Shown here one piece after another: positions 1,181 to 56,473 of a stretch of 64,000 bases of DNA. Where the stretch lies: NCBI GenBank assembly GCA_030680175.1, contig JAUXWO010000111.1, positions 65,145 through 129,144 on the forward strand, written 5' to 3'. The stretch's first letter is position 1; the number at the start of each line of letters is the position of its first letter. Below the pieces are notes generated by a model. It saw only the letters and a list, made by a program, of their open reading frames with translations. It was not told the origin of the DNA and ran no database searches. A program made the translations under genes and the position numbers. The stretch comes from Vicinamibacterales bacterium. GTDB lineage: Bacteria > Acidobacteriota > Vicinamibacteria > Vicinamibacterales > UBA2999.

Positions 1181-1191
1181 GCCTGCCCGAG

Positions 1192-26875: not shown

Positions 26876-26921
26876 TAACTAATAACCAATAACTAATAAC
26901 TAACAACTAATAACTAACAAC
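26873..26921. repeat. Heptanucleotide tandem array E: TAATAAC x2, CAATAAC, TAATAAC, TAACAAC, TAATAAC, TAACAAC
   Basis: Read directly from the sequence. The first triplet is the TAA stop of the four-helix-bundle gene. The array ends 4 nt before ATG 26926. TAA triplets fall in all three frames. Confidence 0.95.
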
Positions 26922-26925
26922 CTCC

Positions 26926-37871: not shown

Positions 37872-39789
37872 CCTCATGAGTCGAAACGACATGCGCATGT
37901 CCGCGCCCGGGGATCGACGCCGGACGGCCGCCATCGTGGCCGGTCTGGCCGCGCTGCTGGCCGCCAATCTCTTCCTTCGCCACGTCCTCGAGGACGCGCC
38001 ACGCTACCTCTACTCGTTCCTCGACACGTTCTATCCGAACGAGGTGCCGGTCATCTTCGGCGAGCTGCCCCGATGGCGGCTGCTGCTGCCGCTCAGGGAG
38101 CTGACGGGGGCGTGGGCGGCGACCACGCTGCTCACGACCTGGCTCGTCGAACGCGTGCTGTCGCCCGCGGGCGCCTGGTATCTCTTCAATGCCGCGTCGA
38201 TCCTCGTCGCGTTTGGCACGTCGTGGGTCCTCTTCCGGTCGGCGGTCTTCAGCTTCACCTTCGCGATCGCGATCGGCTTCGGTACGCACTACTACCACGC
38301 CTACGCGGTCACCGGGGGCATCGCGTCATACCTGCTGATCTCGTACAACATGCTGCTGCTCTTCACGTTCGCGCAGCTCGTGCGCGGCGCCGGCCCGCGC
38401 CCGCTGTGGGGGGCGGCGTTTGCGGGCGCGATGCTGCTGAACTTCATCGGGTACGAGGGCTGGCTCGACGTCCTCGTGGCCGTGTGGGTGGCGAGCCCGC
38501 TCGTGTACCTCGGACTCCGGCGGATGTCGTGCGACGCGGAGGCGCGGCGCCTCGTCACGATGACGGCGCTCCTGACCGCCATCGGCGTCGTCTACGTCGT
38601 CATGAAGGTCACCCTCGGGTTCGGCCAGACTCAGGGGTCTGAATCGGACGTGGTGTTCAACTACGACCGGCTCTGGCCCGTCGTCGATGACGTCGTGTCG
38701 AACGCGTTCACGCATGCGTACATGAGCGTCAGCAACTTCCTGCCACCGTCGCTGGCCGGGGCGTCGGCGATGTACCGGCTCGGCCCCGACTACCTGATCG
38801 ACGCGCAGCACGGGTACCACGACCAGTTCCTCTACCTCGTGCCGATGCACCAGGTCTTCCACTGGCGCTACTTCGCGGGCGTGGCCGTCACGCTGCTGGT
38901 GGGGGGGCTCGGCCTCGTGGCGCTTCGGTTCTGGCGTGAGCCGTCGCCGTGGCTCCTCGCCCTCGGGGTGTTTCTGGTGCTGGCGCTCGTGGCCGGACCG
39001 ACGCACACGCTCATCAAGTTCCGTCCGATGAAGGCGATGCCCGTCATGACGTACCACATCACCGTGGGCGTCATCGGCATGTCGCTGGCCATCGCGTGGC
39101 TGACGACGACGCTCTTCCGGCGGTGGCAGGGGCGGCCTCGTGCCGCGGTGTGGGTGGCGGCGGTCTGGGTGTTCATCCTGTATGGCGCGCTCGAGCGGCC
39201 GGCCTATCTGGCCCACATGTCAGCGCAGGTGGGGCTCGGGGAAGGCATCTACCCGAACCCGATGCGTGCGCTGGTGGAGCGTCTGGGGTGGACGTACGAC
39301 GCTCCGCGAGGCCTCGCGGCCTACCGGCTTGCCCCGTACCGCGCCGACGCCGTCCAGGCACAGGCACGAGCCGTGCTCGGGCCGCTGCCGGGCCCCCTGC
39401 CACCGCTGTCGGAGTGGCAGGCGCCCGGAGGGGCGACCGTGACCGAGGTGACCGGCGGCGTGCGCGTGGACGGAGATGCGACGCAGTTCGGATATCAGTT
39501 GATGAGCCCTTCCGTTGGCGTGGCCCCGGGCACCACTTATCTCTTCCGGGTGCGCTACGACGTGGAAGCCGGGCGCGTGTGCGCTGGCATCCTCACCGGG
39601 GATCAGCAGCGGTGGGTGGTGCCGCCCGATGGAAGCGCCCCGGAGTACCTGTTCACGGCGGGCGACTACGACGCGGTGCGCGTGGTGCTGGCCAACTGCC
39701 ATGCCGTCGACGTCGGCAACCTGCCAACGCGCGCGACGGTGCGGGGAGGCTCCTACGCCATCCTGACGGCGCCTGGAGTGTCACCGTGA
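37855..39789 (+). CDS. Large polytopic membrane protein, family B paralog 1 (GT-C-like) with C-terminal GYQ-RW module
   Basis: ORF 37399..39789 trimmed to ATG 37855 (alternative ATG at 37876). The N-terminal ~480 aa are multi-TM. The C-terminus reads FGYQLMSPSVGV...GRVCAGILTGDQQRWVV...LANC. Confidence 0.55.
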   Translation: MDATDDLMSRNDMRMSAPGDRRRTAAIVAGLAALLAANLFLRHVLEDAPRYLYSFLDTFYPNEVPVIFGELPRWRLLLPLRELTGAWAATTLLTTWLVERVLSPAGAWYLFNAASILVAFGTSWVLFRSAVFSFTFAIAIGFGTHYYHAYAVTGGIASYLLISYNMLLLFTFAQLVRGAGPRPLWGAAFAGAMLLNFIGYEGWLDVLVAVWVASPLVYLGLRRMSCDAEARRLVTMTALLTAIGVVYVVMKVTLGFGQTQGSESDVVFNYDRLWPVVDDVVSNAFTHAYMSVSNFLPPSLAGASAMYRLGPDYLIDAQHGYHDQFLYLVPMHQVFHWRYFAGVAVTLLVGGLGLVALRFWREPSPWLLALGVFLVLALVAGPTHTLIKFRPMKAMPVMTYHITVGVIGMSLAIAWLTTTLFRRWQGRPRAAVWVAAVWVFILYGALERPAYLAHMSAQVGLGEGIYPNPMRALVERLGWTYDAPRGLAAYRLAPYRADAVQAQARAVLGPLPGPLPPLSEWQAPGGATVTEVTGGVRVDGDATQFGYQLMSPSVGVAPGTTYLFRVRYDVEAGRVCAGILTGDQQRWVVPPDGSAPEYLFTAGDYDAVRVVLANCHAVDVGNLPTRATVRGGSYAILTAPGVSP

Positions 39790-42356
39790 GCCCGTCGTCC
39801 CGGGCGCGGGTGATGCACGGGCTGGTCTGGCTGCCGGTGCTCGCGTACGCGCTGGTCGTCGGCCGGCAGTTCTTCCACTACGCCGATGCGGCCATCTCTC
39901 TGGCCAGCGATGATGGGGTCGGGAACATCGCCTACGCCCTTGCCACGGAAGGGCGGTACGGGTTCCTGAGCAGTCCTATCCTCGCGGGCCTTCCCCGCGA
40001 CGACGGTCTCTTCAGCTACGGGCCGTTCTACTTCTACGCTGGCGCCGCGCTCATCTGGCTGTTCGGCTACAACCTGATGCTGCTCCGCTTCATCCACCTG
40101 GCCGTGGTGCTGGCGATCGCCGCCGCCGCACGGCGGTGGTTCGGTTCGGCGGCCGGTGGCGCGGCGGGCGCGTTCGCGGCGATCGGCCTGCTGATGGCGT
40201 TCGAGCGCGCGCAGTGGCCGATGGTGCGACCCGACAGCATGGTGTCGCTCTTCGCGGTGGTGCTGGTCATCAGCGCCGGCCTCGCCATCCGGACGGGCGC
40301 CGGGCGCTACTGGTGCATCGCCGGATTGGCGGGCGCGTGCGGCGCGTTCACGCACCTCGTGGCCTGGAGCCTCGTGCCGGCGGTCGCGGCGATCCTCGTG
40401 CTGGGCCTCCTCGTCGACGCGCGTGACGAGGAGGGACGGTGGCGGCGTCCCGTGCGTGTCTGGTTTCCGCTGGCGCTGACGGCCGCCGGGGGCCTTGCGG
40501 GGACGTTCCTCTTCTATGCCTCGTTCGGGTTCCGATTCGCCGAGCAGTGGCATTTCCTGCTGGACTACCAGCGCTTCACCGGCAGCATGGGCGGCGGCGC
40601 GTCTCCCGGGTTCCTGGCCCTCGTGCTGGCGCATTTCGAGCAGGCCTATTGGTATCTGCCGTACCCGCTCGCCTACGGCGTCTGGGCGACGCTGGCTGCG
40701 GCCGTCGTCGTCGTGCCGGCCGTGCTCGTGTTCGATCGCGGGCCGCGGCGTCGCGAGACGCTGGCCTGGGTCGGCCCCCCCACCGTCGTCTGGGTCGGCT
40801 ATCTCCTCAGCCTCGGCACGTACAACAACTTTCATGCCGGCTACGCGATGCTGAACCAGGTGATGTGGCTGTGGACGGGCGCCGCGCTCGTCGCTGCCGG
40901 CCTGGCCGGGGTCCGCGTTCGGCCCGCGCTCGGGGTGATGGCGGAGAGGCTCGCGTGGACGACGGCAGTGCTGCTGGGCATCGGCATGCTCACGGTGCTG
41001 GCGGCGCGTACGGACTTCCGCGCGCTCGATGCCGCGGCGCGAACGCCGGCCCGCGAGTACAGCGAGCGCGTGCTCCACGCGCTGCCGGTCCGCGCGCGTG
41101 CCTGGGGGTCGGTGGAGCTCGGCATCGAGCATCCGAGCCGCATCCAGCTGGTCCAGTTCTGGGACGCGATTCGCGTGGTCGAGGCGATCGACCCGCCGCG
41201 CCGGCCGCCGCTGGCGCCCGACTATCTGGTGTGGGGGCACGTGGAGAACGGGGGCAGCACGCGCGAAGTGCTCGCGATGGCCGACCGGGAGGCGCACGGC
41301 GTCGACGGGCGCGAGATCCATGTGGGGCCGCAGCGGCTGCTCGATGCGTTCCCGGACGCGCGCTACACGCTCGTGTCCCTCGTGGCTGCGCCGCCCTACG
41401 GGGTCACGCGCGTCTATGCGTGGGCGGGCGGGGCGCACGCGTTCTCGAGGCCGCTGCTGAGCGTCTTCGATCCAATCGCCCGTCAGTGGAGCAGTGCCGC
41501 GGGACCTGCGGTCCCAGTGGAACTGCAGGAGTCGGCGCCCGCCACGCTCCGCATCGGTGTCGAGCCGGCCGCCCCGGCGCGTCAGGCGAGGCAGACCCTC
41601 CGGGGCGAACTACCTCCAGGCCACTACCTCCTGCGCATCGCGATGGCACCAGACGGCGGCGGCGGTGACGCGGTCGTCGTGCTGGCGTCTACGGCGGCGG
41701 AGATCACCGAGGACATCACGGACGCGCGGCGCGGCGTGGACGCCAGCCCTCGGTTTGCCGGCGAGCCGGCCGTGTATCTCGTCCACCGGCACCCCGGAGG
41801 GCCGCTGTACGTGAGCCAGTTCGGCACGGGGCCGTCCGCCATCGTCGGGGTCGAGGCGATGTCGATTCTGGCGCTGCCTGACTACGCCGGACTCCGGCGC
41901 GCGCCGGTCGAGCACCCGCTCCCGGCCTCGAGCTGGACGGCCGCGTTTCCGGCCCTCTCGGTGAGCCCGGCTGGCACCGGGAACGCGTCGGTGCGCGGCG
42001 ATGAGACGCAGTTCGGCTATCAGGCGTACGGCCCCAGGATCCCGGTCCAGCGCGGTCTGCGCGTGCGGATTCGCCCGGCGATCACGATTCAGGCCGGACG
42101 CGCCTGCTTCGGCGTGCTCGACGGCACGGAAGAGCGGTGGCTCGTGGCGCCGGATGCCTTGCTCCCCGAGTACGAGTTCGTTGTCAACGACAGCGCGACG
42201 GTCAAGCCCGTGCTCGCCAACTGCAACGGCACGCCCGAGGGCATCGTCCCGACGGAGGCGACGATTGGCGACGGCAGTTACGCGCTCTGGCCCGAGCGGG
42301 AGGGCCTGTACGTCGACGAGTTGATGCGCGAGTTCCGCAATGCGACGCCCCGGTAG
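39786..42356 (+). CDS. Large polytopic membrane protein, family B paralog 2 (ArnT/PMT_2-like GT-C) with C-terminal GYQ-RW module
   Basis: Starts at GTG 39786 (GTGA overlap). The first TM segment is followed by an acidic loop, SDDGVGNIAYALATEGRYGF. The TM block LLRFIHLAVVLAIAAAARRWFG...MVRPDS resembles PMT_2/ArnT spacing. The C-terminus reads FGYQAYGPRIPV...GRACFGVLDGTEERWLV...LANC. Confidence 0.55.
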   Translation: MSPSSRARVMHGLVWLPVLAYALVVGRQFFHYADAAISLASDDGVGNIAYALATEGRYGFLSSPILAGLPRDDGLFSYGPFYFYAGAALIWLFGYNLMLLRFIHLAVVLAIAAAARRWFGSAAGGAAGAFAAIGLLMAFERAQWPMVRPDSMVSLFAVVLVISAGLAIRTGAGRYWCIAGLAGACGAFTHLVAWSLVPAVAAILVLGLLVDARDEEGRWRRPVRVWFPLALTAAGGLAGTFLFYASFGFRFAEQWHFLLDYQRFTGSMGGGASPGFLALVLAHFEQAYWYLPYPLAYGVWATLAAAVVVVPAVLVFDRGPRRRETLAWVGPPTVVWVGYLLSLGTYNNFHAGYAMLNQVMWLWTGAALVAAGLAGVRVRPALGVMAERLAWTTAVLLGIGMLTVLAARTDFRALDAAARTPAREYSERVLHALPVRARAWGSVELGIEHPSRIQLVQFWDAIRVVEAIDPPRRPPLAPDYLVWGHVENGGSTREVLAMADREAHGVDGREIHVGPQRLLDAFPDARYTLVSLVAAPPYGVTRVYAWAGGAHAFSRPLLSVFDPIARQWSSAAGPAVPVELQESAPATLRIGVEPAAPARQARQTLRGELPPGHYLLRIAMAPDGGGGDAVVVLASTAAEITEDITDARRGVDASPRFAGEPAVYLVHRHPGGPLYVSQFGTGPSAIVGVEAMSILALPDYAGLRRAPVEHPLPASSWTAAFPALSVSPAGTGNASVRGDETQFGYQAYGPRIPVQRGLRVRIRPAITIQAGRACFGVLDGTEERWLVAPDALLPEYEFVVNDSATVKPVLANCNGTPEGIVPTEATIGDGSYALWPEREGLYVDELMREFRNATPR

Positions 42357-42362: not shown

Positions 42363-42776
42363 ATGTTGCCCGACGCCGTGACCGCGCTCATCAGGGAGGA
42401 ACAGGCCCGTTCGGGAGGACGGTTCATCGCCCGTCCGGACCTCGACGCCTATCTGGACAAGCTTGGCCGGCACGCCGACGCGCTCATCGACCTGCGCGCA
42501 GGACGCTGCCTCGGGGTCGTCGCGTACTACGCCAACGATGTCGAGAGCCGGCGGGCGTTCATCCCACTTGTCCTCGTGGCGCCGGACGCGCGAGGGCAGG
42601 GGCTCGCGGGCCTGCTCGTCGGTGGCGTGCTCGACCTCTGCCGTGCGCGGGGGTTCACCCGCTGCGGACTGGAAGTGCGCGCCGACAACCGTGCCGCCCT
42701 GTCCGCCTACCGCCGCCTCGGGTTCGAGATGGTCCGCGAACGTGAGGGGATCCTGCTGATGGAGGTCGCCCTTTGA
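42363..42776 (+). CDS. GNAT N-acetyltransferase
   Basis: Motifs VLVAPDARGQGLAGLLVGGVLDLCRARGF and ALSAYRRLGFEMV. Confidence 0.85.
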   Translation: MLPDAVTALIREEQARSGGRFIARPDLDAYLDKLGRHADALIDLRAGRCLGVVAYYANDVESRRAFIPLVLVAPDARGQGLAGLLVGGVLDLCRARGFTRCGLEVRADNRAALSAYRRLGFEMVREREGILLMEVAL

Positions 42777-43738
42777 CGTACCAGTGGACCAAGCTCGGAC
42801 GCGTCTTCGACCCCGCATCGCGCCCCCGGCCCGAGTGGCTCCGCGAGTTTGCGCAGGCGCCGGCCACGCTCGTGCTCGACGACGTCGTGCGCGTCTACTT
42901 CTCGTGCCGTCCCGGACCGGACGCCGAGGGACGGTACGTGAGTCACGCGGCGTACGTGGATCTGAACCGCCGCGACCTGTTCGAGGAGGTCGGTCTGTCG
43001 CCAGAGCCCGTGCTCCCGCTCGGCGGCCTCGGGACGTTCGACGAGTTCGGCACCTATCCCACGTCGGTGGTCCGCCATGGTGACCAGGTGTGGGCGTACT
43101 ACGGCGGATGGACGCGCTGCATCTCGGTGCCGTTCGACGTGGCCATCGGCCGCGCGGTCAGCCACGATGGCGGCCGCACCTTCGAGAAGGCGGGGCGCGG
43201 CCCCGTGCTCGGCGCGTCGCTCGGGGAGCCGTTCATCATGAGCGGCCCGAAGATCCGGCGGTTCGGGGACCGCTGGTATCTCTTCTACATCGCCGGCGTG
43301 AAGTGGATTCCGACGGGGAGCCGCGCCGAACCCGTCTACCGCATCCGGATGGCGACGTCGGACGACGGCGTGACCTGGACGCGTCACGGCCGCGAACTCA
43401 TTCCGCCCCGGATCGAACCTGACGAGTGCCAGGCCAGCCCGGACGTGATCGAAGCCGGCGGCCGGTACCACATGTTCTTTTGCTACCGCCACAGCCTCGA
43501 CTTCCGCAACCGCGACCGCGGCTACCGGATCGGCTATGCCTCGTCGACCGACCTGGTGCACTGGGAGCGCGACGATGCGCGCGCGGGGCTGGGGGTGTCG
43601 GCGGAGGGCTGGGACTCCGAGATGGTGAGCTACCCGCACGTGTTCGTGCTCGACGGCGTCACCTGGATGTTCTATCTGGGCAACCAGGTGGGCCGGCACG
43701 GCTTCGGGCTGGCACGGCTCGAGGGGAGCCTCGCGTGA
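42773..43738 (+). CDS. Predicted five-bladed beta-propeller protein (GH32/43/130-like), paralog 1; no signal peptide
   Basis: TTG start within a TTGA overlap. Repeated blade-like motifs: VRVYFS, GTFDEFGTYPTSVV, AIGRAVSHDGGRTFEK, RMATSDDGVTWTR, GYASSTDLVHWERD and FYLGNQVGRHGFGLA. The fold is inferred. Confidence 0.5.
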   Translation: MTYQWTKLGRVFDPASRPRPEWLREFAQAPATLVLDDVVRVYFSCRPGPDAEGRYVSHAAYVDLNRRDLFEEVGLSPEPVLPLGGLGTFDEFGTYPTSVVRHGDQVWAYYGGWTRCISVPFDVAIGRAVSHDGGRTFEKAGRGPVLGASLGEPFIMSGPKIRRFGDRWYLFYIAGVKWIPTGSRAEPVYRIRMATSDDGVTWTRHGRELIPPRIEPDECQASPDVIEAGGRYHMFFCYRHSLDFRNRDRGYRIGYASSTDLVHWERDDARAGLGVSAEGWDSEMVSYPHVFVLDGVTWMFYLGNQVGRHGFGLARLEGSLA

Positions 43739-44691
43739 AGTGGGTGAAGCGGGGGCTCTTGTTCAACCCCGAAGAACACCGGCTGCCGGCCGGGTGCACC
43801 GGCTTCGCGCAGTCGCCGCAGGCGCTCGTCTGCGACGACCACGTGCGGATCTACTTCTCGACGCGGCGGGCCGAGTCCGGCGGCCAGTTCCTGAGCCATG
43901 TGGCGTGGGTCGACGTGGACCGCGAGGTCCGCACGATCCTCCGGGTCGGCGAACGGACGGCGCTGCCGCTCGGCGGGCTTGGCTGCTTCGACGAGCACGG
44001 CATTTTCCCGTTCAACGTCGTGCGGGATGGCGACGCGGTGCGCGCCTACACCTGCGGGTGGAGCCGGCGCGTCTCCGTCCCGGTGGAGACGGCCATCGGA
44101 CTCGCCGTCAGCCGTGACGGGGGAGAGACGTTCGAGCGCACCGGCCGCGGGCCGGTGATGGGGCCGACGCCAGACGAGCCGTTCCTGGTGGGCGATCCGT
44201 TCGTGCTCAGGCACGAGGGACGCTGGCACATGTGGTACATCTACGGCACGGCGTGGGCGCCGGGTGGGCCGGCCGATCCAGGTCCCGCGCGCGTCTACAA
44301 GATCGCCTACGCCTCGTCCCCTGACGGACTGTCCTGGGAGCGCGACGCGCGTGCCATCGTGCCCAGCCGCGTGGGCGACGACGAGTGCCAGGCGCTCCCG
44401 ACGGTCTTCGCGTGTGACGGACGCTGGCACATGTACTTCTGCTATCGTCATGCCACCGACTTTCGCACGAACCCCGCGCGCGCCTACCGTCTCGGCTACG
44501 CGTGGTCCGAGAACCTGCGCGAGTGGGTGCGCGACGATGCCTCGGCGGGCATCGACGTCTCGGCGTCCGGGTGGGATGCGGAGATGCAGTGCTACCCGCA
44601 CGTGTTCTGGTGCGGGGACACGGCGTTCCTGCTGTACAACGGCAATGCGTTCGGCCGCGCCGGATTCGGCGTGGCCGTGCTGGAGCACTAG
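43735..44691 (+). CDS. Predicted five-bladed beta-propeller protein, paralog 2
   Basis: Starts at GTG 43735 (GTGA overlap). Collinear with paralog 1: VRIYFS, GCFDEHGIFPFNVV, AIGLAVSRDGGETFER, AYASSPDGLSWERD and LYNGNAFGRAGFGVA. Confidence 0.5.
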   Translation: MKWVKRGLLFNPEEHRLPAGCTGFAQSPQALVCDDHVRIYFSTRRAESGGQFLSHVAWVDVDREVRTILRVGERTALPLGGLGCFDEHGIFPFNVVRDGDAVRAYTCGWSRRVSVPVETAIGLAVSRDGGETFERTGRGPVMGPTPDEPFLVGDPFVLRHEGRWHMWYIYGTAWAPGGPADPGPARVYKIAYASSPDGLSWERDARAIVPSRVGDDECQALPTVFACDGRWHMYFCYRHATDFRTNPARAYRLGYAWSENLREWVRDDASAGIDVSASGWDAEMQCYPHVFWCGDTAFLLYNGNAFGRAGFGVAVLEH

Positions 44692-44800: not shown

Positions 44801-45553
44801 ATGAGTGCACCCGAGCGCGACTACGACCGCGAATTGCGGGACACGCCCGACCACAAGTACGCCTACACGTTCGACCTCGACGTGATGCACCCGTTCATGC
44901 TGCGCTCGTTCGAGCCGTTCTGCGGCGACGGCAGCGTGCTCGAACTCGGCAGCTACACGGGGGAGTTCACGGGCCGCCTGGCCGGGCGGTTCACGGACAT
45001 CACCTGCGTCGAGGCCTCCGGGGAGGCGGTGGCGCAGGCGCGGGCGCGGCTGGGAGACCGGGCGCGAATCGTGCACGGCACCTTCGAGTCCGTGCGGCTC
45101 GAGCGCCGGTTCGACCACATCGTGCTGACCCACGTGCTGGAGCACCTCGACGACCCGGTGGGTGTCCTGCGGCGTGTCAACGACGAGTGGCTCAACGAGC
45201 GGGGGCGGCTGTTCCTGGTGTGCCCGAATGGCAACGCCGCGTCGCGGCAGATCGCGGTGCGGATGGGCCTCATCCCGCACAATGCGGCGATCACGCCGGC
45301 CGAGCGCGAGCACGGACACCGGATCACCTACACGCTCGACACGCTCGAGCGCGACGCCCGCGCGGCGGGCCTGCGCGTCGTGCACCGCTCCGGGATCTTC
45401 TTCAAGGCGCTGGCGAACTTCCAGTGGGACCGGCTGCTGGCGACCGACATCATCTCGACGGAGTACCTCGAGGGGTGCTACCAGCTCGGGCACGTCTACC
45501 CGGACTTGTGCTCGAGCATCTTCCTGGTGTGCGAGCGTGGGGAGGCGGCCTGA
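44801..45553 (+). CDS. Class I SAM-dependent methyltransferase
   Basis: Motifs VLELGSYTGEFTGRLA, IVLTHVLEHLDDP and GRLFLVCPN. Confidence 0.8.
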   Translation: MSAPERDYDRELRDTPDHKYAYTFDLDVMHPFMLRSFEPFCGDGSVLELGSYTGEFTGRLAGRFTDITCVEASGEAVAQARARLGDRARIVHGTFESVRLERRFDHIVLTHVLEHLDDPVGVLRRVNDEWLNERGRLFLVCPNGNAASRQIAVRMGLIPHNAAITPAEREHGHRITYTLDTLERDARAAGLRVVHRSGIFFKALANFQWDRLLATDIISTEYLEGCYQLGHVYPDLCSSIFLVCERGEAA

Positions 45554-45559: not shown

Positions 45560-46264
45560 ATGACGCTGGGGATCATGCAGCCGTACTTCCTGCCGTACCT
45601 CGGCTACTGGCAGCTGCTGGCGCGGGTGGACGCCTTCGTCGTGTACGACAACATCCAGTACACGAAGAAGGGCTGGATCAACCGGAACCGCTACCTCCGG
45701 GATGGCGAGCCGGCGTGGTTCACCGTGCCGCTGAAGAAGGCGTCGGACTATCTCGATGTGCGCGAGCGCGAGGTGGCGCCGGACTTCGATCGCGCCAAGC
45801 TCCTGCGCGCGCTGGCGTCGAGCTACCGCACGGCGCCGCAGTTCGACGCGGTGTTCCCGCTGGTCGAGCGCGTGGTGCGCGCGCCGAAGGCCCATCTTTT
45901 CGACTACGTCCACCACAGCCTGATCGAGACTGCGGCGTTCCTCGGCGTCGCCACGCCGATCGTCGTCTCGTCCACCGTGGCCATCGACCATACGCTGGCG
46001 GCGGAGCGCAGGGTGCTGGCGCTCTGCGAGGCGATCGGCGCGGAGGCCTATCTCAACCCGGTCGGCGGGCAGGCGCTGTACTCGGCCGCGGCGTTCGCGG
46101 CCCGAGGCGTGCGGCTCCAGTTCCTGCGCCCGCAGCTGCGCGAGTATCCGCAGTGCGGGCGCCCTTTTGTGCCAGGCCTGTCGATTCTCGACGTGCTGAT
46201 GTTCAACTCCCGGGACACCGTGCGGGAGATGCTGAAAGAGTGTGATGTCCTCTCCGCGGTTTAG
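45560..46264 (+). CDS. WbqC-family protein, copy 2
   Basis: The N-terminus MTLGIMQPYFLPYLGYWQLL...QYTKKGWINRNR is the characteristic WbqC N-terminus. Confidence 0.8.
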   Translation: MTLGIMQPYFLPYLGYWQLLARVDAFVVYDNIQYTKKGWINRNRYLRDGEPAWFTVPLKKASDYLDVREREVAPDFDRAKLLRALASSYRTAPQFDAVFPLVERVVRAPKAHLFDYVHHSLIETAAFLGVATPIVVSSTVAIDHTLAAERRVLALCEAIGAEAYLNPVGGQALYSAAAFAARGVRLQFLRPQLREYPQCGRPFVPGLSILDVLMFNSRDTVREMLKECDVLSAV

Positions 46265-47375
46265 CGAGCCCATCTACGTGACTCGGCCGCTGCTGCCGCC
46301 GCTCGACGCCGTGCAGGCGCGGCTGGCGGAGGTGTGGACGGCGCGCTGGCTGACCAACGACGGTGCGCAGACGGTCGCGCTGACCGAGGCCATCGCCGGC
46401 CATCTCGGCGCGCCCCACGTGTCGCTCTTCAACAACGGCACGATCGCGCTGCTGGCCGCCGTGCGTGCGCTGGGGCTCACCGGCGAGGTCATCACGACGC
46501 CCTTCACGTTTCCGGCCACGCCGCACGCCGTGTCGTGGAGCGGCGCGACGCCGGTCTTCGCGGACATCGATCCGGTCACGATGACGCTCGATCCGGTGGC
46601 CGTCGAAGCGCTGGTGACCCCACGGACGACCGGCATCCTCGCCGTCCACGTCTACGGCATTCCCTGCGACGTGCGCGGCCTGCAGACGGTCGCGGATCGC
46701 CACGGCCTGAAGGTGATCTACGACGCGGCCCACGCATTCGGGACGACGATCGATGGCGTGGGAATCGGGACCTTCGGGGATGCGTCGATGTTCAGCTTTC
46801 ACGCGACGAAGCTGTTCCACACCGCGGAAGGCGGCGCGCTCGCCTGCCGCGACCCGGAGACCAGGGCGCTCGTCGACCAGCTCAAGAACTTCGGCATCCT
46901 CAACCAGGAGGAGGTCGGGCCGGTCGGCATCAACGGCAAGATGAACGAGCTGCAGGCCGCGCTCGGGCTGGCCGTACTCGACTGCGTGCCCGAGGAGTTG
47001 CGCAAGCGCCAGGCGATCATCGCCCGGTACCGCGAGCGGCTGGCCGGCGTGTCAGGCGTCACGCTGATGCCCGAGCCGTCCGGCGTGCGGAGCAGCGGCC
47101 AGTACTTCGTGATTCGCATCGACGCGCAGGCGTTCGGCCGCTCGCGCGACGAGGTGCACGAGGCCTTCAAGCGCGAGAACGTGATGACGCGGAAGTACTT
47201 CTTTCCGCTGTGCACGGACTATGCCTGTTACCGCGATCTGCCCTCGGCCGCACCCGGGCGCCTGCCCGTGGCGGGCCGGGTCGTGCAGGAGGTGCTCTGC
47301 CTGCCGCTCTACGGCACCCTGGCGCTGGACGATGTCGACGCCATCTGCGATCTGCTGACTGGTTTCCGGCGGTAG
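46245..47375 (+). CDS. DegT/DnrJ/EryC1/StrS-family aminotransferase, copy 3
   Basis: Starts at ATG 46245 (the ORF track GTG is at 46242). Motifs LFNNGTIALLAAVRALGL, VIYDAAHAFG and FSFHATKLFHTAEGG. Confidence 0.9.
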   Translation: MSSPRFSEPIYVTRPLLPPLDAVQARLAEVWTARWLTNDGAQTVALTEAIAGHLGAPHVSLFNNGTIALLAAVRALGLTGEVITTPFTFPATPHAVSWSGATPVFADIDPVTMTLDPVAVEALVTPRTTGILAVHVYGIPCDVRGLQTVADRHGLKVIYDAAHAFGTTIDGVGIGTFGDASMFSFHATKLFHTAEGGALACRDPETRALVDQLKNFGILNQEEVGPVGINGKMNELQAALGLAVLDCVPEELRKRQAIIARYRERLAGVSGVTLMPEPSGVRSSGQYFVIRIDAQAFGRSRDEVHEAFKRENVMTRKYFFPLCTDYACYRDLPSAAPGRLPVAGRVVQEVLCLPLYGTLALDDVDAICDLLTGFRR

Positions 47376-47377: not shown

Positions 47378-48298
47378 ATGCCCACACTGTCCTTCGTCAT
47401 TCCCGTCTACCGGAACGAGCGTGCGGTCACGCTGACCTACCAGAAACTCTGCGCGATGCAGGCGGCGGACCTCCCCGGCTACGACCGCGAGTTCGTCTTC
47501 GTGGACGACGGGTCGGACGATGGGTCGCTGCAGGAACTGCTCGGGCTTCGGGCCGGCGACCCGACGGTGCGGGTCGTCTCCTTCACCCGGAACTTCGGCC
47601 AGATGGCGGCGATCCTGGCCGGGCTGAAGCACGCCACCGGCGACCTGGTGCTGCACCTGTCAGCCGATCTGCAGGATCCGGTCGAGCTGATCCCCCAGAT
47701 GGTGCGCGCGCACGAGGCTGGGCATGAACTGGTCGTGGCGTATCGTCAGAGCCGCGAGGACAGCTGGACGGCGCGGATCACGTCGCGCCTGTTCTACGGC
47801 CTGGTCCGGCTGTCGTTTCCGCAGATGCCGCCCGGCGGGTTCGACTACGTCTTGATGGACCGGCGTGTCGTCGACGCGTTCAACCAAGTGGAGGTCCGGA
47901 ACCGCTTCTTCCAGGGCGACCTGCTGTGGCTTGGCTACCGCACGACGTTTCTGCCCTACACACGGGCGAGACGCGAGATCGGGCGGTCGCAGTACAACTT
48001 CTGGAAGCGGCTGAAGAACTCGCTGGATGCGGTCCTGGACGCGTCGTTCCTGCCGATTCGCGCCATCAGCCTGGCGGGCGTGTTCACGGCGCTCGTCGGG
48101 TTCGCGTACGCGTTGAACATCATCTACTACCGGCTGGTGCATGGCGCGCCGTTCCAGGGGTGGGCGCCCATCATGGTGGTCACCCTGGTCATCGGCGGCG
48201 TCATCATGATGATGCTGGGCATCATCGGCGAGTACGTCTGGCGCATCTTCGACGAAGTGCGCCGCAAGCCGAACTACGTCATCCGCGACATCTACTGA
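47378..48298 (+). CDS. Glycosyltransferase family 2, polyprenyl-phosphate sugar synthase type (ArnC/GtrB-like), paralog 4
   Basis: Trimmed to MPTLSFVIPVYRNE at 47378. Motifs FVDDGSDDGS and LSADLQDP. Two C-terminal TM helices are followed by a GEYVWRIFDEVRRKPNY tail. Confidence 0.85.
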   Translation: MPTLSFVIPVYRNERAVTLTYQKLCAMQAADLPGYDREFVFVDDGSDDGSLQELLGLRAGDPTVRVVSFTRNFGQMAAILAGLKHATGDLVLHLSADLQDPVELIPQMVRAHEAGHELVVAYRQSREDSWTARITSRLFYGLVRLSFPQMPPGGFDYVLMDRRVVDAFNQVEVRNRFFQGDLLWLGYRTTFLPYTRARREIGRSQYNFWKRLKNSLDAVLDASFLPIRAISLAGVFTALVGFAYALNIIYYRLVHGAPFQGWAPIMVVTLVIGGVIMMMLGIIGEYVWRIFDEVRRKPNYVIRDIY

Positions 48299-50272
48299 GT
48301 GCGTACCTTCGTCCGCCGCGAAGCCGTGTGGGTGGCGCTCCTCGTGGTCTGTGCCGCCGCCTGGGGCGCGAGCTACGTGCAGCGCTGGCGAGACGCCGGA
48401 CGGGCGCAGAGTTTCTACCAGGAGTACTTCGAGCCGGCGGTCATGATTGGGTGCGGCCGCGGGTTTGTCGCCGCGGAGGTCACGCCCGCGGAGGTCAAGG
48501 CGTTCCTCGAGCAGCGGGCCGATGCGGTGGACTGTGCCGCGCTTCCAGACGGCATGCCCGTCGTATCGACCGGCCTGTACCAATACGCATGGTTCTACCT
48601 GATGTGGATGGTCGGCGCGTTCTGGATGATGGCGGGAGTGTCGTGGAGCGGGCTCGTGCCCCTGTTCGGCGCCCTCTTCGCGGTCGTGATCGGCCTCGCG
48701 TACGCGATTGTCCGGCTGGTGGTTCCGCCATCGGTGGCGTGGGTGGCGGCGGCGGGGCTCATGGCCTCGTCGCTGCATCTCGAGAACCTGCCTCACCTGC
48801 GCGACTACGCGAAGGCCCCCTTCGTGCTTGGCCTCCTGCTCATTCTCTTCGCCATCGTCCGGCGGCCCACTCCGTTCAGAGTGATCGCGTTGTCGGGCCT
48901 GTACGGCCTGGTACTCGGTATTGGCTACGGCGTTCGGACCGACTTCCTCGCGCACATCCCGCTGCTGCCAATGGCGGTGCTGGTGTTCGTGCCGGGATTC
49001 GACGCGCGGGCGTTGGCCGCAAAGGCGGCCGCGCTCGTCGCGGCGGCCGTGATGTTCGTCGTCGCGTCGTGGCCAGTCGTGTCCTATGTCGTGAATCAGG
49101 GCGGCTGCCAGTGGCACGTGGCGCTCGTGGGGCTCGACCACCAGTTCACCAGGGATCTCGGCGTCGCGCCGTCGTACTACCAGTGGATCTCGCGCTCGTC
49201 GGACGAGTACGTGCACGCCGCCGTGAACGGCTTCGCCTACCGGACCGAGGGCGCGGCGCCCGTTCCGTACTGCTCGGCGGAATACGACCGCGCGTCGGGC
49301 CGGTACCTCGCGTCCATCGCGACCGCGTTCCCGGCGGACGTGCTCACCCGCGCCTACGCCTCGACGCTCCGAATCATCGACCTGCCGCTCTTCCAGTGGA
49401 CGGCGGGGCCTGGCGCCGAGCGCAGCACGGTGGGCCATGCCATGACGTACTTCGTCGGAACGGCGCGGCTCGCGACGATGGCGGCGGTGCTGGCGCTCGG
49501 CGCCTGGAGCTGGAGGGTGGGGTTGTTCGCGCTCGCCATCGTGCTCTACTGCGGCGCCTACCCGTCACTGCAGTTCGGATCGCGGCACTTCTTTCACCTC
49601 GAGTTCATCGGCTGGGGCGCCATCGCTTTCGTCGTGTGGCTCGGCGTCTCGGCGGCGCGGGCATGGCGGGGACGGGAGACGCCGCCCTGGCGCGGCCACG
49701 AGGCGGCGCTCACGCGGCGCGCGGTCCAGTTCGCAACGGTCGCCATTCTCGGCCTGCTGACGCCGCTGTTCATGGCTCGGGTGTACCAGGACGCGAGGTT
49801 CCTGCAGCTTCGGACCGCGTTGCTGGAATCACCACGAGTGCCTGTGGCCATGGCGCCTGACGCTGATGGCGCGTTCCTCCGCGTGTCCGACCAGGCGGCG
49901 CTCGACACAGGGCCGGACGAGACAGGCACCGTCTATCTCGACATCCAGCTCGATCTCGACGCGTGCCCGGAGGGCGTGCCACTCGCCACGCGTTACGAGG
50001 TCGAGAACCCGGTCTTCGACTTCTCGTGGCCGATCCAGCCACAGCCGGCGACGGCCGTGCCCGCGCGTGTGCTCCTGCCGGCATACGAGGGCTTCGCGGG
50101 CCTGGCGCTGAACGGCGCGCCGGCGCGCTGCGTGACGTCGGTGCACCGTGTCCCGTCGGCCGAGCGGCTGCCGCTGCTGCCGATCCTGACGCTGCCGGCC
50201 GAGTGGGAACGACGCCCCGCGCACCAGCGTGTCGGGGGGATGGCACTTCGTCTGGGGTGGTATGGCCTCTGA
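48299..50272 (+). CDS. Large polytopic membrane protein, family A paralog 2 (GT-C-like)
   Basis: The GTG start directly abuts the upstream TGA. Motifs PAVMIGCGRGF, HLRDYAKAPF and LQFGSRHFFHL are shared with 1875..4499 and 50262..52778. Its C-terminal soluble part differs from the GYQ-RW module. Confidence 0.55.
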   Translation: MRTFVRREAVWVALLVVCAAAWGASYVQRWRDAGRAQSFYQEYFEPAVMIGCGRGFVAAEVTPAEVKAFLEQRADAVDCAALPDGMPVVSTGLYQYAWFYLMWMVGAFWMMAGVSWSGLVPLFGALFAVVIGLAYAIVRLVVPPSVAWVAAAGLMASSLHLENLPHLRDYAKAPFVLGLLLILFAIVRRPTPFRVIALSGLYGLVLGIGYGVRTDFLAHIPLLPMAVLVFVPGFDARALAAKAAALVAAAVMFVVASWPVVSYVVNQGGCQWHVALVGLDHQFTRDLGVAPSYYQWISRSSDEYVHAAVNGFAYRTEGAAPVPYCSAEYDRASGRYLASIATAFPADVLTRAYASTLRIIDLPLFQWTAGPGAERSTVGHAMTYFVGTARLATMAAVLALGAWSWRVGLFALAIVLYCGAYPSLQFGSRHFFHLEFIGWGAIAFVVWLGVSAARAWRGRETPPWRGHEAALTRRAVQFATVAILGLLTPLFMARVYQDARFLQLRTALLESPRVPVAMAPDADGAFLRVSDQAALDTGPDETGTVYLDIQLDLDACPEGVPLATRYEVENPVFDFSWPIQPQPATAVPARVLLPAYEGFAGLALNGAPARCVTSVHRVPSAERLPLLPILTLPAEWERRPAHQRVGGMALRLGWYGL

Positions 50273-52778
50273 CCTGCCGGAGGTCGCGGAGCGCCGTGGA
50301 CATCGGCGACGCGCCACGCTCGGAGAGGCGGCGGCCGTGCTCACGCTGGTCGTGGTCGCAATCTGGTATGGCCGCTTCGCGTTCCTCCACCAGGTGACGC
50401 CTCCCGATTACCACTACTTCGGCCCGGCGGTCATGCTCGCGACCGGCCAGGGATTCATGGCGCCATTTCCAGAGGCAGGAACCCCCTTCGGCGCCTTCCT
50501 GTCCGGCGAGGCGTCCGCGCTGAACGCGTCGGAGGCCGTCGCGGAGACCGTGGGGGCACCCGATCAGTTTCACCACTCCATCCGCTATCTGCTGTATGTG
50601 ACCGCCTACTGGTGGCGCCACACGGGCATTTCGTGGGCGGCCCTTGCGGATATCGCCGGAGCGCTGCACGCGCTTGCCGCGCTCGGCGTCTACTTCACGG
50701 CCCGCCTCTTCGTGCCCATGCCGATGGCCCTCGGCGCGGCGCTCTGGATTGCCGTCTCACCCTGGCAGCTGAGCATGGTGGCGCACGTCCGTGACTACTC
50801 GAAGGGCGCCTTCATCGTTGCGGCGCTGCCGTTGATTCTGCTCATGGCGCTGCGGGTGCCCGCGCGCGCCAGGTTTCTCGTCGCGGCGGCTGCCGCCGGC
50901 GTCGTGCTCGGCGTCGGGTTCGGGTTCCGGCGGGACATCCTCGTGATGATCCCCATCACCGTGGCCTGCCTGGTCCTGTGCCGCGGGCGGTGGCCATGGA
51001 GCGACGCGCTGAGCAAGCTGCAGGGCGTCGCGACCTTCCTCGCCGCCTTTCTCCTCGTCTCGGCTCCCGTGCTCGTGCCCCTCGTGCAAGGGGGATCGCA
51101 CACCATGCACGTGATCCTCCTCGGTCATGCCCCCGGCTTCGACCGCGCGCTGGGGATCGACGCCCCGGGGTATCGCGCCCTGCCGTTCTACGACGACGGC
51201 TACGCCGGGATGGTGGTGGACGCGCACAACGCGGCCGTGGGGGGAGCGCCGATCCTGACCAATCCGTCGGTGGAGTACGACGCGGCGGGTCAACGGCTGA
51301 TGCTGGCGCTGCTCCGGCACTTCCCGGCGGACATCTTCGTGCGCGCGCTGGGGGCGGGGAACACCATCCTCAACATGCCCTTCGCGAGCCCGGATCCCGT
51401 GTTCCTGACGCGTCCGCTCCCGCTGGCGGACGCGACGGCGCGCCTCCATGCCGGGCTGTATGCGCTGAACGGCCTCGGGGGGTGGCTCGGCGCGGCCTTC
51501 GTCGTCCTCGCCACGCTCGCGGGCCTGCGCGAGGGACTGCTCGCCGGTCTGCTGGTCCTGGTCCTGACGGGATACTCCTCCCTGCAGTTCGACTTGCGAC
51601 ACTACTTCCACTTGCAGGTCGTGCCTGTCATCGTGCTGGTCGTCCTCGCGTGGGCCGTCATGCGTGGTGTCGTGGCCCTGGTTGACCGTCGCGGTGCGGT
51701 GGCACCAACCGGGCTCCGTGTGGTCAACCGGCGCCGCCTCGCGGGCCATGCGACCGCAGGTGTCGTGGTCGTGCTGCTGCTCACGGCGGTGCCCCTGTCC
51801 GCGCTCCGCCTGTATCAGGGGCGGCACGTGACAGGCCTTGTGGAGGCGTACCTTCGGGGGCCGCGGATACCCGTCGTGACCGAACCGGTGGCGCTCGGGC
51901 AGGGGGCGACGCTGCTCGAGTGGCGTGACGCGCCTCCGGAGATGCACGCCGGATCCGGCCAGCGCTCGGCACACTACCTGGCGGAGTTTCGCGGAGGGCA
52001 GGCCCCCGTGACGGTCGCCGTCCGCTATCGCCCGAACGCCGCCGGCGTCGACTTCTCGCGCGTGATCGCCGTCGCCCCTGGCGAGGGGACGACGCGGGTG
52101 GGCTTTCAGGCGTTCGACCTGCCCGGGATCGCCGAGTTCATCGGGGTGGAAGTGGGCCCCGAGGCGCGCGACAGGCTCATGGGCCTCTACCGGGTCTCGG
52201 ACGGCGGACCGGCGCAGCTGCCGCTCGACATATCGTTGCCTCCCGACTGGACGGAGCGGAGGCTCTATCAGCGTCTTCGTGCCGAGCCGGCCGATCCTCG
52301 GGCGTTCGTGCCCCAGCAGGTGGTGTGTGCCGCCGACCACGGCTGTCACGGCCGTCTCGGCGCGATCGAGGCGTCGACGACGCTCGGGCGCCCGCCCCGT
52401 CAGGAGGACGTGCGAACCATCCACGCTCCGTCGGTCCAGTTGACGGCGAGCGGTCTCGCCGTGGACGGCCGCGCCGAGTCGGAATCGGCGTATCTCGTCG
52501 AGTGGCATCCGGTGTCCTTCGTCCAGGGAGGCACGCTCGTGTGGCGCGGACGGCTCGACGAGGGCGGGTTGCTGGTCGGACTGCTGCACGACGGTCGCTG
52601 GCATTCCCAGGCGACGGTGCGGACGCCGGGGGTGTTCACGATCGTGGTCCCGGTCCCGGCCGGCGGCGAGTACGTGCCGTTGATGACCAACGCGCTGCCG
52701 CCGGGACAGCGTCACATCAGGTTCGCGATCACATCAATGGTGTCGCTGCCGCAGGCGCCCGTCGAGGAGGGACGCTAG
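50262..52778 (+). CDS. Large polytopic membrane protein, family A paralog 3 (GT-C-like) with divergent C-terminal GYQ-RW-like module
   Basis: ORF 50229..52778 trimmed to ATG 50262. Motifs PAVMLATGQGF, HVRDYSKGAF and LQFDLRHYFHL. The C-terminus ...GGLLVGLLHDGRWHSQ... matches the module only weakly. Confidence 0.55.
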   Translation: MASDLPEVAERRGHRRRATLGEAAAVLTLVVVAIWYGRFAFLHQVTPPDYHYFGPAVMLATGQGFMAPFPEAGTPFGAFLSGEASALNASEAVAETVGAPDQFHHSIRYLLYVTAYWWRHTGISWAALADIAGALHALAALGVYFTARLFVPMPMALGAALWIAVSPWQLSMVAHVRDYSKGAFIVAALPLILLMALRVPARARFLVAAAAAGVVLGVGFGFRRDILVMIPITVACLVLCRGRWPWSDALSKLQGVATFLAAFLLVSAPVLVPLVQGGSHTMHVILLGHAPGFDRALGIDAPGYRALPFYDDGYAGMVVDAHNAAVGGAPILTNPSVEYDAAGQRLMLALLRHFPADIFVRALGAGNTILNMPFASPDPVFLTRPLPLADATARLHAGLYALNGLGGWLGAAFVVLATLAGLREGLLAGLLVLVLTGYSSLQFDLRHYFHLQVVPVIVLVVLAWAVMRGVVALVDRRGAVAPTGLRVVNRRRLAGHATAGVVVVLLLTAVPLSALRLYQGRHVTGLVEAYLRGPRIPVVTEPVALGQGATLLEWRDAPPEMHAGSGQRSAHYLAEFRGGQAPVTVAVRYRPNAAGVDFSRVIAVAPGEGTTRVGFQAFDLPGIAEFIGVEVGPEARDRLMGLYRVSDGGPAQLPLDISLPPDWTERRLYQRLRAEPADPRAFVPQQVVCAADHGCHGRLGAIEASTTLGRPPRQEDVRTIHAPSVQLTASGLAVDGRAESESAYLVEWHPVSFVQGGTLVWRGRLDEGGLLVGLLHDGRWHSQATVRTPGVFTIVVPVPAGGEYVPLMTNALPPGQRHIRFAITSMVSLPQAPVEEGR

Positions 52779-55537: not shown

Positions 55538-56473
55538 ATGAGCGTGCCGATGACACCGATGACCTGGGAGAAGCACGGGCTGATCTTCCGTCCCGACCCC
55601 TCGCGGCCGTGGATGCGGAGCCACGCCGCCGTGCCCACACCGCTGCAACTGGACGGCAGTCTGTACCGCGTCTACTTCTCGAGCCGCGACGAGCGGAACC
55701 GATCGCACGTGGGCTTCTTCGAGATCGACCTTGCCTCGCCGGAGCGGATCCTGGCAGTGTCGCCGGAGCCCGTTCTTGCGCCGGGTCCGACCGGATGCTT
55801 CGACGCCGACGGCATCTATGCCGAGTCCGTCGTGCGGGTGGGCGACGAGGTGCGGCTCTACACGATCGGCGTGACCACGGGGCACACACCGCCGCTCTTC
55901 TACGCGGCCATCGGCCTGGCGACGAGCCGGGATGGCGGCGCGACGTTCGCCAGGCACAGCGCCGCGCCGATCATGGGGCGCTCTGCGCACGATCCCTGCC
56001 TCGTGACCGCGCCCTTCGTCCTCCGGGACGGGGACCGCTGGCGCATGTGGTACGTCTCCGGGACCTCATGGACGGAGGAGACGCACGGATGGCAGTCGCA
56101 CTACCACGTGAAGTACGCCGAGTCGGCGGACGGCGTGACGTGGCTGCGCGACGGGCACAACTGCATCGCGCCGCAGGACCCGCGCGAGAACAACATCGCG
56201 CGGCTGTGGGTGGTCCCCGACGGGGAAGGCTACCGGGGGTGGTACTCGGTCAACGCCGGCGAGGGCTACCGGCTGGGGTACGCGGAGTCGCGCGACGGAT
56301 ACGACTGGAGGCGTCTGGATCATCTGACGGGGATCGCGTTGTCCCCCGACGGCTGGGACGCGCAGGCGCAGGCATATCCGGCGGTGGTCCGTCACGGCGA
56401 CCGTTGGTTCATGTTCTACAACGGCAACGGGTTCGGCCGCGACGGGGTCGGCCTGGCGATCGCGCCCGCGTGA
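55538..56473 (+). CDS. Predicted five-bladed beta-propeller protein, paralog 3
   Basis: Collinear with 42773 and 43735: YRVYFSS, GCFDADGIYAESVV, AIGLATSRDGGATFAR, KYAESADGVTWLRD, GYAESRDGYDWRR and FYNGNGFGRDGVGLA. Confidence 0.5.
   Translation: MSVPMTPMTWEKHGLIFRPDPSRPWMRSHAAVPTPLQLDGSLYRVYFSSRDERNRSHVGFFEIDLASPERILAVSPEPVLAPGPTGCFDADGIYAESVVRVGDEVRLYTIGVTTGHTPPLFYAAIGLATSRDGGATFARHSAAPIMGRSAHDPCLVTAPFVLRDGDRWRMWYVSGTSWTEETHGWQSHYHVKYAESADGVTWLRDGHNCIAPQDPRENNIARLWVVPDGEGYRGWYSVNAGEGYRLGYAESRDGYDWRRLDHLTGIALSPDGWDAQAQAYPAVVRHGDRWFMFYNGNGFGRDGVGLAIAPA

Follow-up and report, generated by a model that had tools for sequence, protein, structure and literature searches.

The general logic by which a lipid-phosphate-sugar synthase is paired with a periplasmic glycosyltransferase (GT) of the GT-C superfamily is already known. 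In the three-component systems (GtrA/GtrB/Gtr*), the synthase gene lies beside a GT-C gene in a surface-polysaccharide locus. ORF15/ORF14/ORF12 of Citrobacter youngae form such a system, and ORF12, which has a C-terminal carbohydrate-binding module (CBM), is the founding member of GT136, a family established for want of sequence similarity to existing GT families (PMC11127046). Other described relatives are the Arn system of lipid A aminoarabinose, the mycobacterial Emb and Aft enzymes, which use a polyprenyl-monophosphate sugar, and the GT39 protein O-mannosyltransferases. Here we analyse a 64,000-nucleotide stretch of DNA (hereafter the window) from a Vicinamibacterales bacterium of the Acidobacteriota (GenBank assembly GCA_030680175.1, contig JAUXWO010000111.1, positions 65,145 to 129,144 of the forward strand), in which three large membrane proteins, A, B and C, are encoded close to ArnC-like synthases. 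We propose that they probably belong to an unnamed, large family of GT-C fold that moves an amino-deoxyhexose linked to undecaprenyl phosphate (Und-P) onto a periplasmic polysaccharide. Relative to the known logic, the new element is a large, uncharacterised GT-C-like family, spread across phyla, that has a distinctive, conserved signature and occurs with a conserved module for donor synthesis.

Three paralogs with a predicted GT-C fold

The genes for A (48299..50272; 657 amino acids, aa), B (50262..52778; 838 aa) and C (1875..4499; 874 aa) all lie on the + strand. The NCBI entry MDP1571635.1, from a metagenome-assembled genome (MAG) of a Vicinamibacterales member of the Acidobacteriota, matches A with 100% identity; this entry and that of B (MDP1571636.1) are named 'hypothetical protein' at NCBI, and C (MDP1571598.1) is named 'glycosyltransferase family 39 protein'. 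In pairwise BLASTP alignments, which span ~640-710 columns each, A and B are 30% identical (E 2e-35), A and C 26% (E 3e-40), and B and C 30% (E 1e-42). A, B and C are thus true paralogs. B has ~150 additional C-terminal residues and scores 600 bits with the hidden Markov model (HMM) of the family, and C has two extra C-terminal beta-sandwich domains.

The first-pass annotation of this DNA had noticed three motifs shared by the three open reading frames (ORFs), PA[VI]M[IML]xxGxGF (motif 1), [SH][LV]RD[FY]xK (motif 2) and LQFxxRHxFHL (motif 3), and six-frame translation of the window bore this out, since each motif was found three times and no more, once in each of A, B and C, in identical order and at matching positions. 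In A, motif 1 (PAVMIGCGRGF, aa 46-56; 48434..48466) lies in a juxtamembrane helix (JM1) that is predicted for the first periplasmic loop and has E45 at its tip; motif 2 is HLRDYAK (aa 166-172; 48794..48814) and motif 3 LQFGSRHFFHL (aa 424-434; 49568..49600). The corresponding sequences are PAVMLATGQGF (50424..50456), HVRDYSK (50784..50804) and LQFDLRHYFHL (51582..51614) in B, and PAIMMACGYGF (2034..2066), SLRDFIK (2391..2411) and LQFSRRHMFHL (3213..3245) in C, all on the + strand.

AlphaFold2 models of A and C, built with family alignments, were of high predicted quality (predicted local distance difference test, pLDDT, 91.4 and predicted template-modelling score, pTM, 0.91 for A; 86.8 and 0.81 for C). 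DSSP assignment on both models places 11-12 long helices ahead of a C-terminal beta domain, in agreement with hydropathy, so that the motifs are indeed set among at least ten hydrophobic segments, as had been noted from the sequence. This number lies within the 7-13 transmembrane (TM) helices of the GT-C superfamily. In Foldseek searches against the PDB, the 16 best matches of A were all GT-C proteins (AglB, STT3, ALG3, EmbA/EmbB, AftA and PimE) representing at least six CAZy families, with Pmt1/2/4, DPY19 and AftB among the further matches. Most GT-C matches of A had a probability of 0.9-1.0, with several Emb and AftA/AftB chains at 0.3-0.9, and transporters, receptors and complex I subunits appeared only at probabilities of 0.2 or below. 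The membrane part of C likewise matched STT3, ArnT (5ezm, probability 0.98), AftB (0.99), DPY19, AftA and Pmt1. Since the high-probability matches of both membrane parts were GT-C proteins only, and no match to a non-GT family was found at such probability, the earlier suggestion of a GT-C-like family is largely supported, and the family of A, B and C is predicted to have the GT-C fold.

The models also resemble GT-C enzymes in architecture. GT-CA enzymes have a loop after TM1 that contains two juxtamembrane helices, JM1 and JM2 (PMC12041299), and a long loop with two short helices after the first membrane helix of A (residues 45-51 and 64-70) and of C (49-59 and 72-78) fits this feature. In both models a ~120-residue loop then follows helix seven or eight and precedes another four transmembrane helices and the C-terminal beta domain. 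The C-terminal domains of C matched CBM6 (5fui, probability 1.0, TM-score 0.61), CBM15 (1gny, 0.99) and CBM22 in Foldseek. C-terminal carbohydrate-binding modules are also found in Emb, AftD and the GT136 protein ORF12 (PMC11127046).

The family is effectively unmodelled in Pfam and NCBIfam, as judged from profile searches. The earlier remark that no named family could be assigned holds for A and B, neither of which has a match in either database, and has to be modified for C, which has no NCBIfam match but passes the Pfam model PMT_2 (PF13231; 27.7 bits against a gathering cut-off of 26.1). This score above the cut-off explains why NCBI calls C a GT39 protein. The match is a weak, marginal sequence link to GT-C, and a phmmer search of the PDB with the matching segment of C returned chance matches only. 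Searched with a profile, a set of 1.84 billion cluster representatives yielded 2,056 family proteins at E<=1e-3 and 1,285 at E<=1e-30, corresponding to ~2,000 clusters at 50% identity from at least eight phyla. Among GTDB species representatives we found 66 family loci, in Acidobacteriota, Hydrogenedentota, Nitrospirota, Nitrospinaceae, Desulfobulbaceae, Alpha-, Beta- and Gammaproteobacteria, Oligoflexia, Planctomycetota, Chloroflexia and one Bacillota MAG; one of the 66 belongs to an isolate in culture, Bradyrhizobium sp. LTSP885.

Conserved periplasmic residues and linkage to ArnC-like synthases

Conservation was counted over 302 full-length family members, with residues numbered as in A. 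Near-invariant polar residues are R139, S157, R168, D169, K172, R213, D215, H273, D302, D347, R351, R429, H430 and H433. The core residues of motif 2 (R168, D169 and K172, 98-99% conserved) and motif 3 (R429 and H430, 99-100%) thus range from 98 to 100%. Of 75 genome-encoded members from different phyla, 63 keep a ten-residue signature (R168-D169-K172-R213-D215-D302-D347-R351-R429-H430) in full. Loops rich in lysine and arginine and poor in aspartate and glutamate (the N-terminus, 189-193, 235-245 and 457-470) would mark the cytoplasmic side of the membrane. Between every conserved polar motif and such a loop there is exactly one hydrophobic helix, and this parity would put the first extracytoplasmic loop (EL1), the RD..K and RxD motifs, the 120-aa loop, the QF..RH..FH motif and the C-terminal domain in the periplasm, so that the conserved polar residues would all face the same, periplasmic, side. 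Within EL1, Cys52 (48452..48454) and Cys79 (48533..48535) of A are each conserved in 92-95% of members. The pair is present in 93%, both cysteines are missing from B and 13 other proteins, and just one is present in eight members. The usual loss of both together fits a periplasmic disulfide and, with the positively charged N-terminus, argues for a periplasmic position of the JM1/JM2 loop.

A and B lie directly downstream of an ArnC/GtrB/PgfS-type polyprenyl-phosphate sugar synthase of family GT2 (GT2a, 47378..48298, + strand; 306 aa, with two C-terminal transmembrane helices). The GTG start of A abuts the TGA stop of GT2a, and the ATG of B, which agrees with the start of MDP1571636.1, lies inside A, so that the two genes overlap by 11 nt. 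C lies two genes downstream of a second ArnC/PgfS-type synthase (GT2b, 203..1180, + strand; 325 aa), with an S-adenosylmethionine (SAM)-dependent methyltransferase gene (1189..1878, + strand) between them, and a methyltransferase gene is found in the same position in related loci. The arrangement and the type of the two GT2 proteins are therefore as first described. GT2a matches Pfam Glycos_transf_2 with 84.7 bits, and both synthases align end to end with the NCBIfam models of PgfS (203 bits for GT2a, 270 for GT2b) and ArnC (PRK10714; 161 and 188 bits), with GT2a below both equivalog cut-offs. Both are full-length relatives of Escherichia coli ArnC, to which GT2a is 31% identical over 306 aa (E 7e-49), the two C-terminal transmembrane helices included in the alignment; GT2a and GT2b are 36% identical to each other.

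The first-pass annotation had named co-occurrence with ArnC-like GT2 genes across genomes as a check, and we found such linkage in several phyla. In 22 of the 36 loci of at least 15 kb, a gene for a GT2 protein scoring at least 100 bits as ArnC-like lay no more than 10 kb from a family gene, and in 17 of these the distance was 3 kb or less. Chance proximity is roughly estimated at a few per cent, assuming a few such GT2 genes per genome. The linkage was seen across Acidobacteriota (13 of 14 loci), Beta- and Gammaproteobacteria, Deltaproteobacteria-type MAGs, Oligoflexia, Chloroflexia and the Bacillota MAG.

The linked genes form a module of two GH130-like genes, a methyltransferase gene, a WbqC gene, a DegT gene, the ArnC-like GT2 gene, optionally a methyltransferase or GDSL gene, and one or more family genes, and it is retained in loci whose family homologs are only 40% identical. 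The order methyltransferase-WbqC-DegT-GT2-(methyltransferase)-family gene is conserved in Acidobacteriota and rearranged in Desulfobulbaceae (L026; L numbers denote the 66 loci), Gammaproteobacteria (L036, L037), Betaproteobacteria (L042, L048) and Oligoflexia (L029). Family genes often stand in tandem: runs of three full-length ones occur in L008, L012, L017 and L061, and in some Acidobacteriota MAGs the loci retrieved add up to at least 6-7 family ORFs or fragments. In a Hydrogenedentes MAG (L031, 4040..12001), the family gene comes immediately after an operon for an OEP-HlyD-ABC-MacB tripartite exporter, not after a GT2 module, which hints that the Hydrogenedentota branch occurs in a different gene context.

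In the window, all genes of the module upstream of GT2a lie on the + strand. The DegT-family sugar aminotransferase gene (46242..47375; Pfam 328 bits) is directly upstream of GT2a, in the arrangement of arnB and arnC. Its best NCBIfam match is DesI (323 bits, below the cut-off), a 4-aminotransferase acting on NDP-4-keto-6-deoxyhexose, followed by PseC (212 bits) and ArnB (162 bits). Because DesI is closest and ArnB weaker, the donor of the GT2a module is likely, by sequence similarity, to be an N-modified 4-amino-4,6-dideoxyhexose. Further upstream are genes for a WbqC-family protein (45560..46264; Pfam 225 bits), on whose function we found nothing informative in the literature, and for a SAM-dependent methyltransferase (44801..45553), both assigned to the conserved module by synteny. 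Two tandem genes for ~320-aa proteins with weak GH130/GH32-like beta-propeller matches (42773..44691) also belong to it.

The pathway that we favour would run as follows. A 4,6-dehydratase encoded elsewhere in the cluster, together with the DegT, WbqC, methyltransferase and GNAT proteins, would make the nucleotide-activated, N-modified 4-amino-4,6-dideoxyhexose in the cytoplasm. GT2a or GT2b would load this sugar onto undecaprenyl phosphate, and a putative flippase would turn the lipid-linked sugar across the membrane. In the periplasm, A, B and C would transfer it to the polysaccharide made by the 64-kb cluster, with a putative division of labour in which the paralogs may differ in acceptor site or act together, and their CBM-like C-terminal beta domains would hold the polysaccharide acceptor.

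Comparison with described systems and rival readings

The order of the genes for the DegT aminotransferase, the ArnC-type GT2 and the polytopic membrane transferase is that of arnB-arnC...arnT, and CmArnT (5ezm; GT83, Pfam PMT/PMT_2) is the Foldseek match of C mentioned above, at 15% identity. The family module, however, is without equivalents of ArnA, ArnD and ArnE/F, its aminotransferase is closest to DesI (6-deoxyhexose) and not to ArnB, and the CBM-like domains point to a polysaccharide acceptor, whereas the Arn system acts on lipid A. The resemblance to the three-component systems lies in a lipid-phosphate-sugar synthase gene placed beside a GT-C gene in a surface-polysaccharide locus and, for GT136 ORF12, in a GT-C protein with a C-terminal CBM and without similarity to established GT families. 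In contrast to these systems, the defining component, a flippase of the GtrA, SMR or MATE type, is not adjacent in the family modules, the sugar pathway points to an amino-deoxyhexose instead of glucose or a pentofuranose, the conserved motifs differ, and tandem paralogs are the rule for the family in Acidobacteriota.

EmbA/B/C and AftA/B/D (GT53, GT85 and GT89, of the GT-CA class) share with the family the presence of several GT-C paralogs, some in tandem, and C-terminal carbohydrate-binding domains, and EmbA/B, AftA and AftB are among the Foldseek matches of the models. AftB has 11 transmembrane helices and a periplasmic cap (PMC12041299), a helix count near that deduced for A, B and C. The Emb and Aft proteins have no sequence similarity to the family, their invariant JM1 aspartate is not conserved in it, and they are mycobacterial, whereas the host of the window is a MAG of the diderm Acidobacteriota. 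With the GT39 protein O-mannosyltransferases the family has in common the GT-C fold, the PMT_2 match of C and the Foldseek matches to Pmt1, Pmt2 and Pmt4, but it is without a PMT (PF02366) or MIR domain and without a DE motif in loop 1, and its context is polysaccharide synthesis and not protein glycosylation. In the Pgf system, one GT2 (PgfS) is paired with two large membrane proteins (PgfM1/PgfM2). The GT2 proteins of the window score best on the NCBIfam model of PgfS, known from Streptococcus mutans, though far under its equivalog cut-off of 500. Sequence comparison does not support placing A, B and C in GT83 or GT39, and we regard them as a new sequence family within GT-C that belongs to no named family.

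Several results weigh against the proposed role as Und-P-sugar-dependent GT-C enzymes. The Foldseek E-values of ~1e-3 and global TM-scores of 0.2-0.42 for the GT-C matches indicate likeness at the level of the fold only; such predicted matches are fold-level evidence and not proof of homology. Low global scores are unsurprising, because GT-C families mainly share an N-terminal module (TM1-7 with JM1 and JM2). PMT_2 was reached by one of 36 scanned family members, C itself, with A, B and the other 33 giving no match at E<=0.1, and none of the listed relatives of C, including one that is 71% identical, has a precomputed PMT_2 domain. Neither of two family profiles, one A-type (A1) and one C-type (A2), matched a PDB sequence in hmmsearch at E<=10. 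When A1 was compared with E. coli ArnT by hhalign, and the 302-sequence alignment with an ArnT alignment (a shallow one, since the ArnT relatives found were all at least 76% identical), the probability was 0.1-0.2%, so that neither the PDB profile searches nor hhalign linked the family at profile level to a solved GT-C protein. The family has no characterised member. Most Hydrogenedentota loci (seven of eight) and all four Nitrospirota loci are without a nearby ArnC-like GT2 gene. No GtrA, SMR or MATE flippase gene was found in or next to the modules, and the map of genes in the window has no gaps around either of them.

The catalytic acid is a further point on this side. In GT-CA enzymes, an aspartate conserved at the JM1 tip acts in catalysis (PMC12041299). 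In the 302 members the acid at this tip is a glutamate, not an aspartate, at position 45 in 49% (A-type proteins) and two residues earlier, at position 43, in 29% (C-type proteins). The acidic residue that the first-pass annotation had suggested seeking in the first extracytoplasmic loop is thus present in 78% of members and absent from both positions in the remaining 22%, including B, and the canonical GT-CA catalytic aspartate is consequently not invariant in the family. Going by the conservation pattern, D169, D215, D302 and D347 are other candidates for the catalytic acid.

The use of a lipid-phosphate sugar as donor is what we infer from the start-stop coupling to the GT2 gene and from the co-occurrence in 22 of 36 loci. 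Alternatively, A, B and C could be GT-C-related enzymes that use oligosaccharides linked to undecaprenyl diphosphate (Und-PP), that is, an oligosaccharyltransferase, polymerase or ligase moving whole repeat units. The best Foldseek matches, AglB and STT3, are oligosaccharyltransferases with diphosphate-linked donors, and the invariant basic residues R168, K172, R213, R351, R429 and H430 could bind a diphosphate. The member from Bradyrhizobium sp. LTSP885 (L064) follows a Wzy_C-like gene in a locus without an ArnC-like GT2 gene (10 kb upstream and ~2.5 kb downstream), and many Hydrogenedentota and Nitrospirota loci also have no GT2 nearby. We nevertheless consider this reading unlikely, given that the start-stop coupling to ArnC-type GT2 genes, whose products make monophosphate-linked monosaccharides, is kept across phyla, that no WaaL, Wzy or SEDS structure was among the 50 Foldseek matches listed, that inspection of A, B and C revealed no WWDxG-type motif, and that tandem arrays of two or more full-length paralogs fit linkage-specific monosaccharide transferases better. 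Another reading keeps the Und-P donors but makes the proteins a periplasmic polymerising system like that of Emb and Aft, in which tandem paralogs would build an amino-deoxy homopolymer or long branches with different linkages. Several paralogs per locus or genome (three in the window, besides the triple runs described above), CBM-like C-terminal domains as in EmbA/B/C and AftD (PMC11127046) and two different Und-P-sugar synthases in the window agree with it, whereas the cytoplasmic enzymes of the cluster (at least five GT4 proteins and a GT2) and its ABC-2 permease suffice for a conventional backbone, and sequence cannot tell polymerisation from the addition of single side-chain sugars; we hold it to be rather improbable. 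Both of these readings remain within GT-C chemistry.

A non-enzymatic role, in which the proteins would be a transporter or scaffold such as the missing Und-P-sugar flippase or a polymer exporter, is very unlikely. It would account for the lack of a dedicated flippase gene within the modules and for the Hydrogenedentes member that follows a MacAB-TolC-type operon, but transporter structures were matched only at the low Foldseek probabilities given above, the invariant polar residues are all on the one, predicted periplasmic, side of proteins that have CBM-like domains attached, and conservation of a ten-residue charged signature in 63 of 75 members is typical of an active site. A bolder version of the proposal, to which we give only a small chance, is that the family is a new GT-C lineage in which an RD..K/RxD/D302/D347xxxR/RH active site replaces the JM1 aspartate, and in which tandem paralogs cooperate outside the cytoplasm as an assembly line, polymerising an amino-deoxy sugar, or branching it multiply, from Und-P donors. 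A and B are translationally coupled, and B has neither the JM1 acid nor the disulfide cysteines. If true, soil Acidobacteriota would commonly have a Gram-negative equivalent of the Emb/Aft machinery that makes arabinan in mycobacteria.

Under the reading that we prefer, periplasmic transfer of an Und-P-linked amino-deoxyhexose by a GT-C family, characterising a single member would probably be enough to establish a new CAZy GT family, as happened with GT136, and the family would serve to test how GT-C catalysis proceeds where the canonical JM1 aspartate is lacking. Hardly any work has been done on the surface polysaccharides of Acidobacteriota, although these bacteria, Vicinamibacterales included, rank among the most abundant in soil. 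Thousands of family genes are now called 'hypothetical' or mislabelled GT39 for want of a Pfam or NCBIfam model; defining the family would improve their annotation and point to a conserved pathway for lipid-linked amino-deoxy sugars.

The surrounding polysaccharide cluster

The window has 70% G+C and ~48 genes, all on the + strand, and Pfam annotation, which covered nearly all of them, points to one very large surface-polysaccharide locus. Pfam matches include five GT4 proteins, three further GT2 proteins, one ABC-2 permease, two UDP-GlcNAc 2-epimerases, one 4,6-dehydratase/epimerase, three DegT aminotransferases, three Asn-synthase-type amidotransferases, transferases of the formyl, carbamoyl, hexapeptide and GNAT types, two polysaccharide deacetylases and two heparinase II/III-like proteins. 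The combination of GT4 and GT2 proteins, ABC-2 permease, epimerases and amido-, formyl-, carbamoyl- and acetyltransferases is typical of a locus for a decorated surface polysaccharide.

This strictly co-directional cluster is unusually redundant: besides the amidotransferases, DegT aminotransferases, heparinase II/III-like proteins and 2-epimerases just listed, it has two WbqC proteins and at least six methyltransferase domains, one of the latter fused to a GT4 (10489..13164). The ABC-2 (Wzm-like) permease gene (16804..17628) has no adjoining gene for an ABC ATPase; its neighbours are a heparinase II/III-like gene and a UDP-GlcNAc 2-epimerase gene. The sole sizeable intergenic gap of the cluster (26396..26925), where a small flippase gene was sought, instead holds a gene (26513..26875) for a 120-aa four-helix-bundle protein of the 23S_rRNA_IVP family (PF05635, 91.9 bits). 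Around it the G+C content falls to 0.56-0.63, compared with 0.70 elsewhere, which suggests that this gene is an insertion. A third ~315-320-aa protein (55538..56473) resembles the tandem pair at 42773..44691, and all three resemble GH130 beta-1,2-mannobiose phosphorylase and GH32 beta-propellers only weakly. The tandem pair is a constant upstream part of the methyltransferase-WbqC-DegT-GT2 module in several phyla.

The region 34845..42356 may be a third module for a lipid-linked sugar. A short GT2 is encoded there, whose NCBIfam matches are all weak, with PgaC/IcaA best and the polyprenyl-P-GalNAc synthase PpgS among them. A GNAT gene, the second WbqC gene and a gene for an LPG_synthase_TM protein (36891..37871; TIGR00374, above its cut-off) follow; the last is the sole flippase-like gene of the window, and lies in a different module from those of A, B and C. 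Then come two large polytopic membrane proteins of 614 aa (37945..39789) and 848 aa (39810..42356), neither of which has a Pfam or NCBIfam match. They were considered as further paralogs of A, B and C and rejected, as the family HMM did not match them (E<=10) and hhalign was not significant.

C and these two proteins have in common a C-terminal domain of ~90-120 aa (G[YF]Q...C.G[VI]L.G..[QE]RW...NC), located at 4250..4499 in C, 39400..39789 in the 614-aa protein and 41950..42356 in the 848-aa protein; it is the only part of the two proteins that is shared with C. In this domain C is 35% identical to the 614-aa protein (E 2e-16) and 33% to the 848-aa protein (E 1e-13), and the latter two are 43% identical (E 2e-29), suggesting, at the level of sequence, a shuffled module that recognises the same ligand. 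The 614-aa and 848-aa proteins may represent another unrecognised GT-C-like family, and homologs of the 848-aa protein occur together with family genes in L011, L032, L042 and L061.

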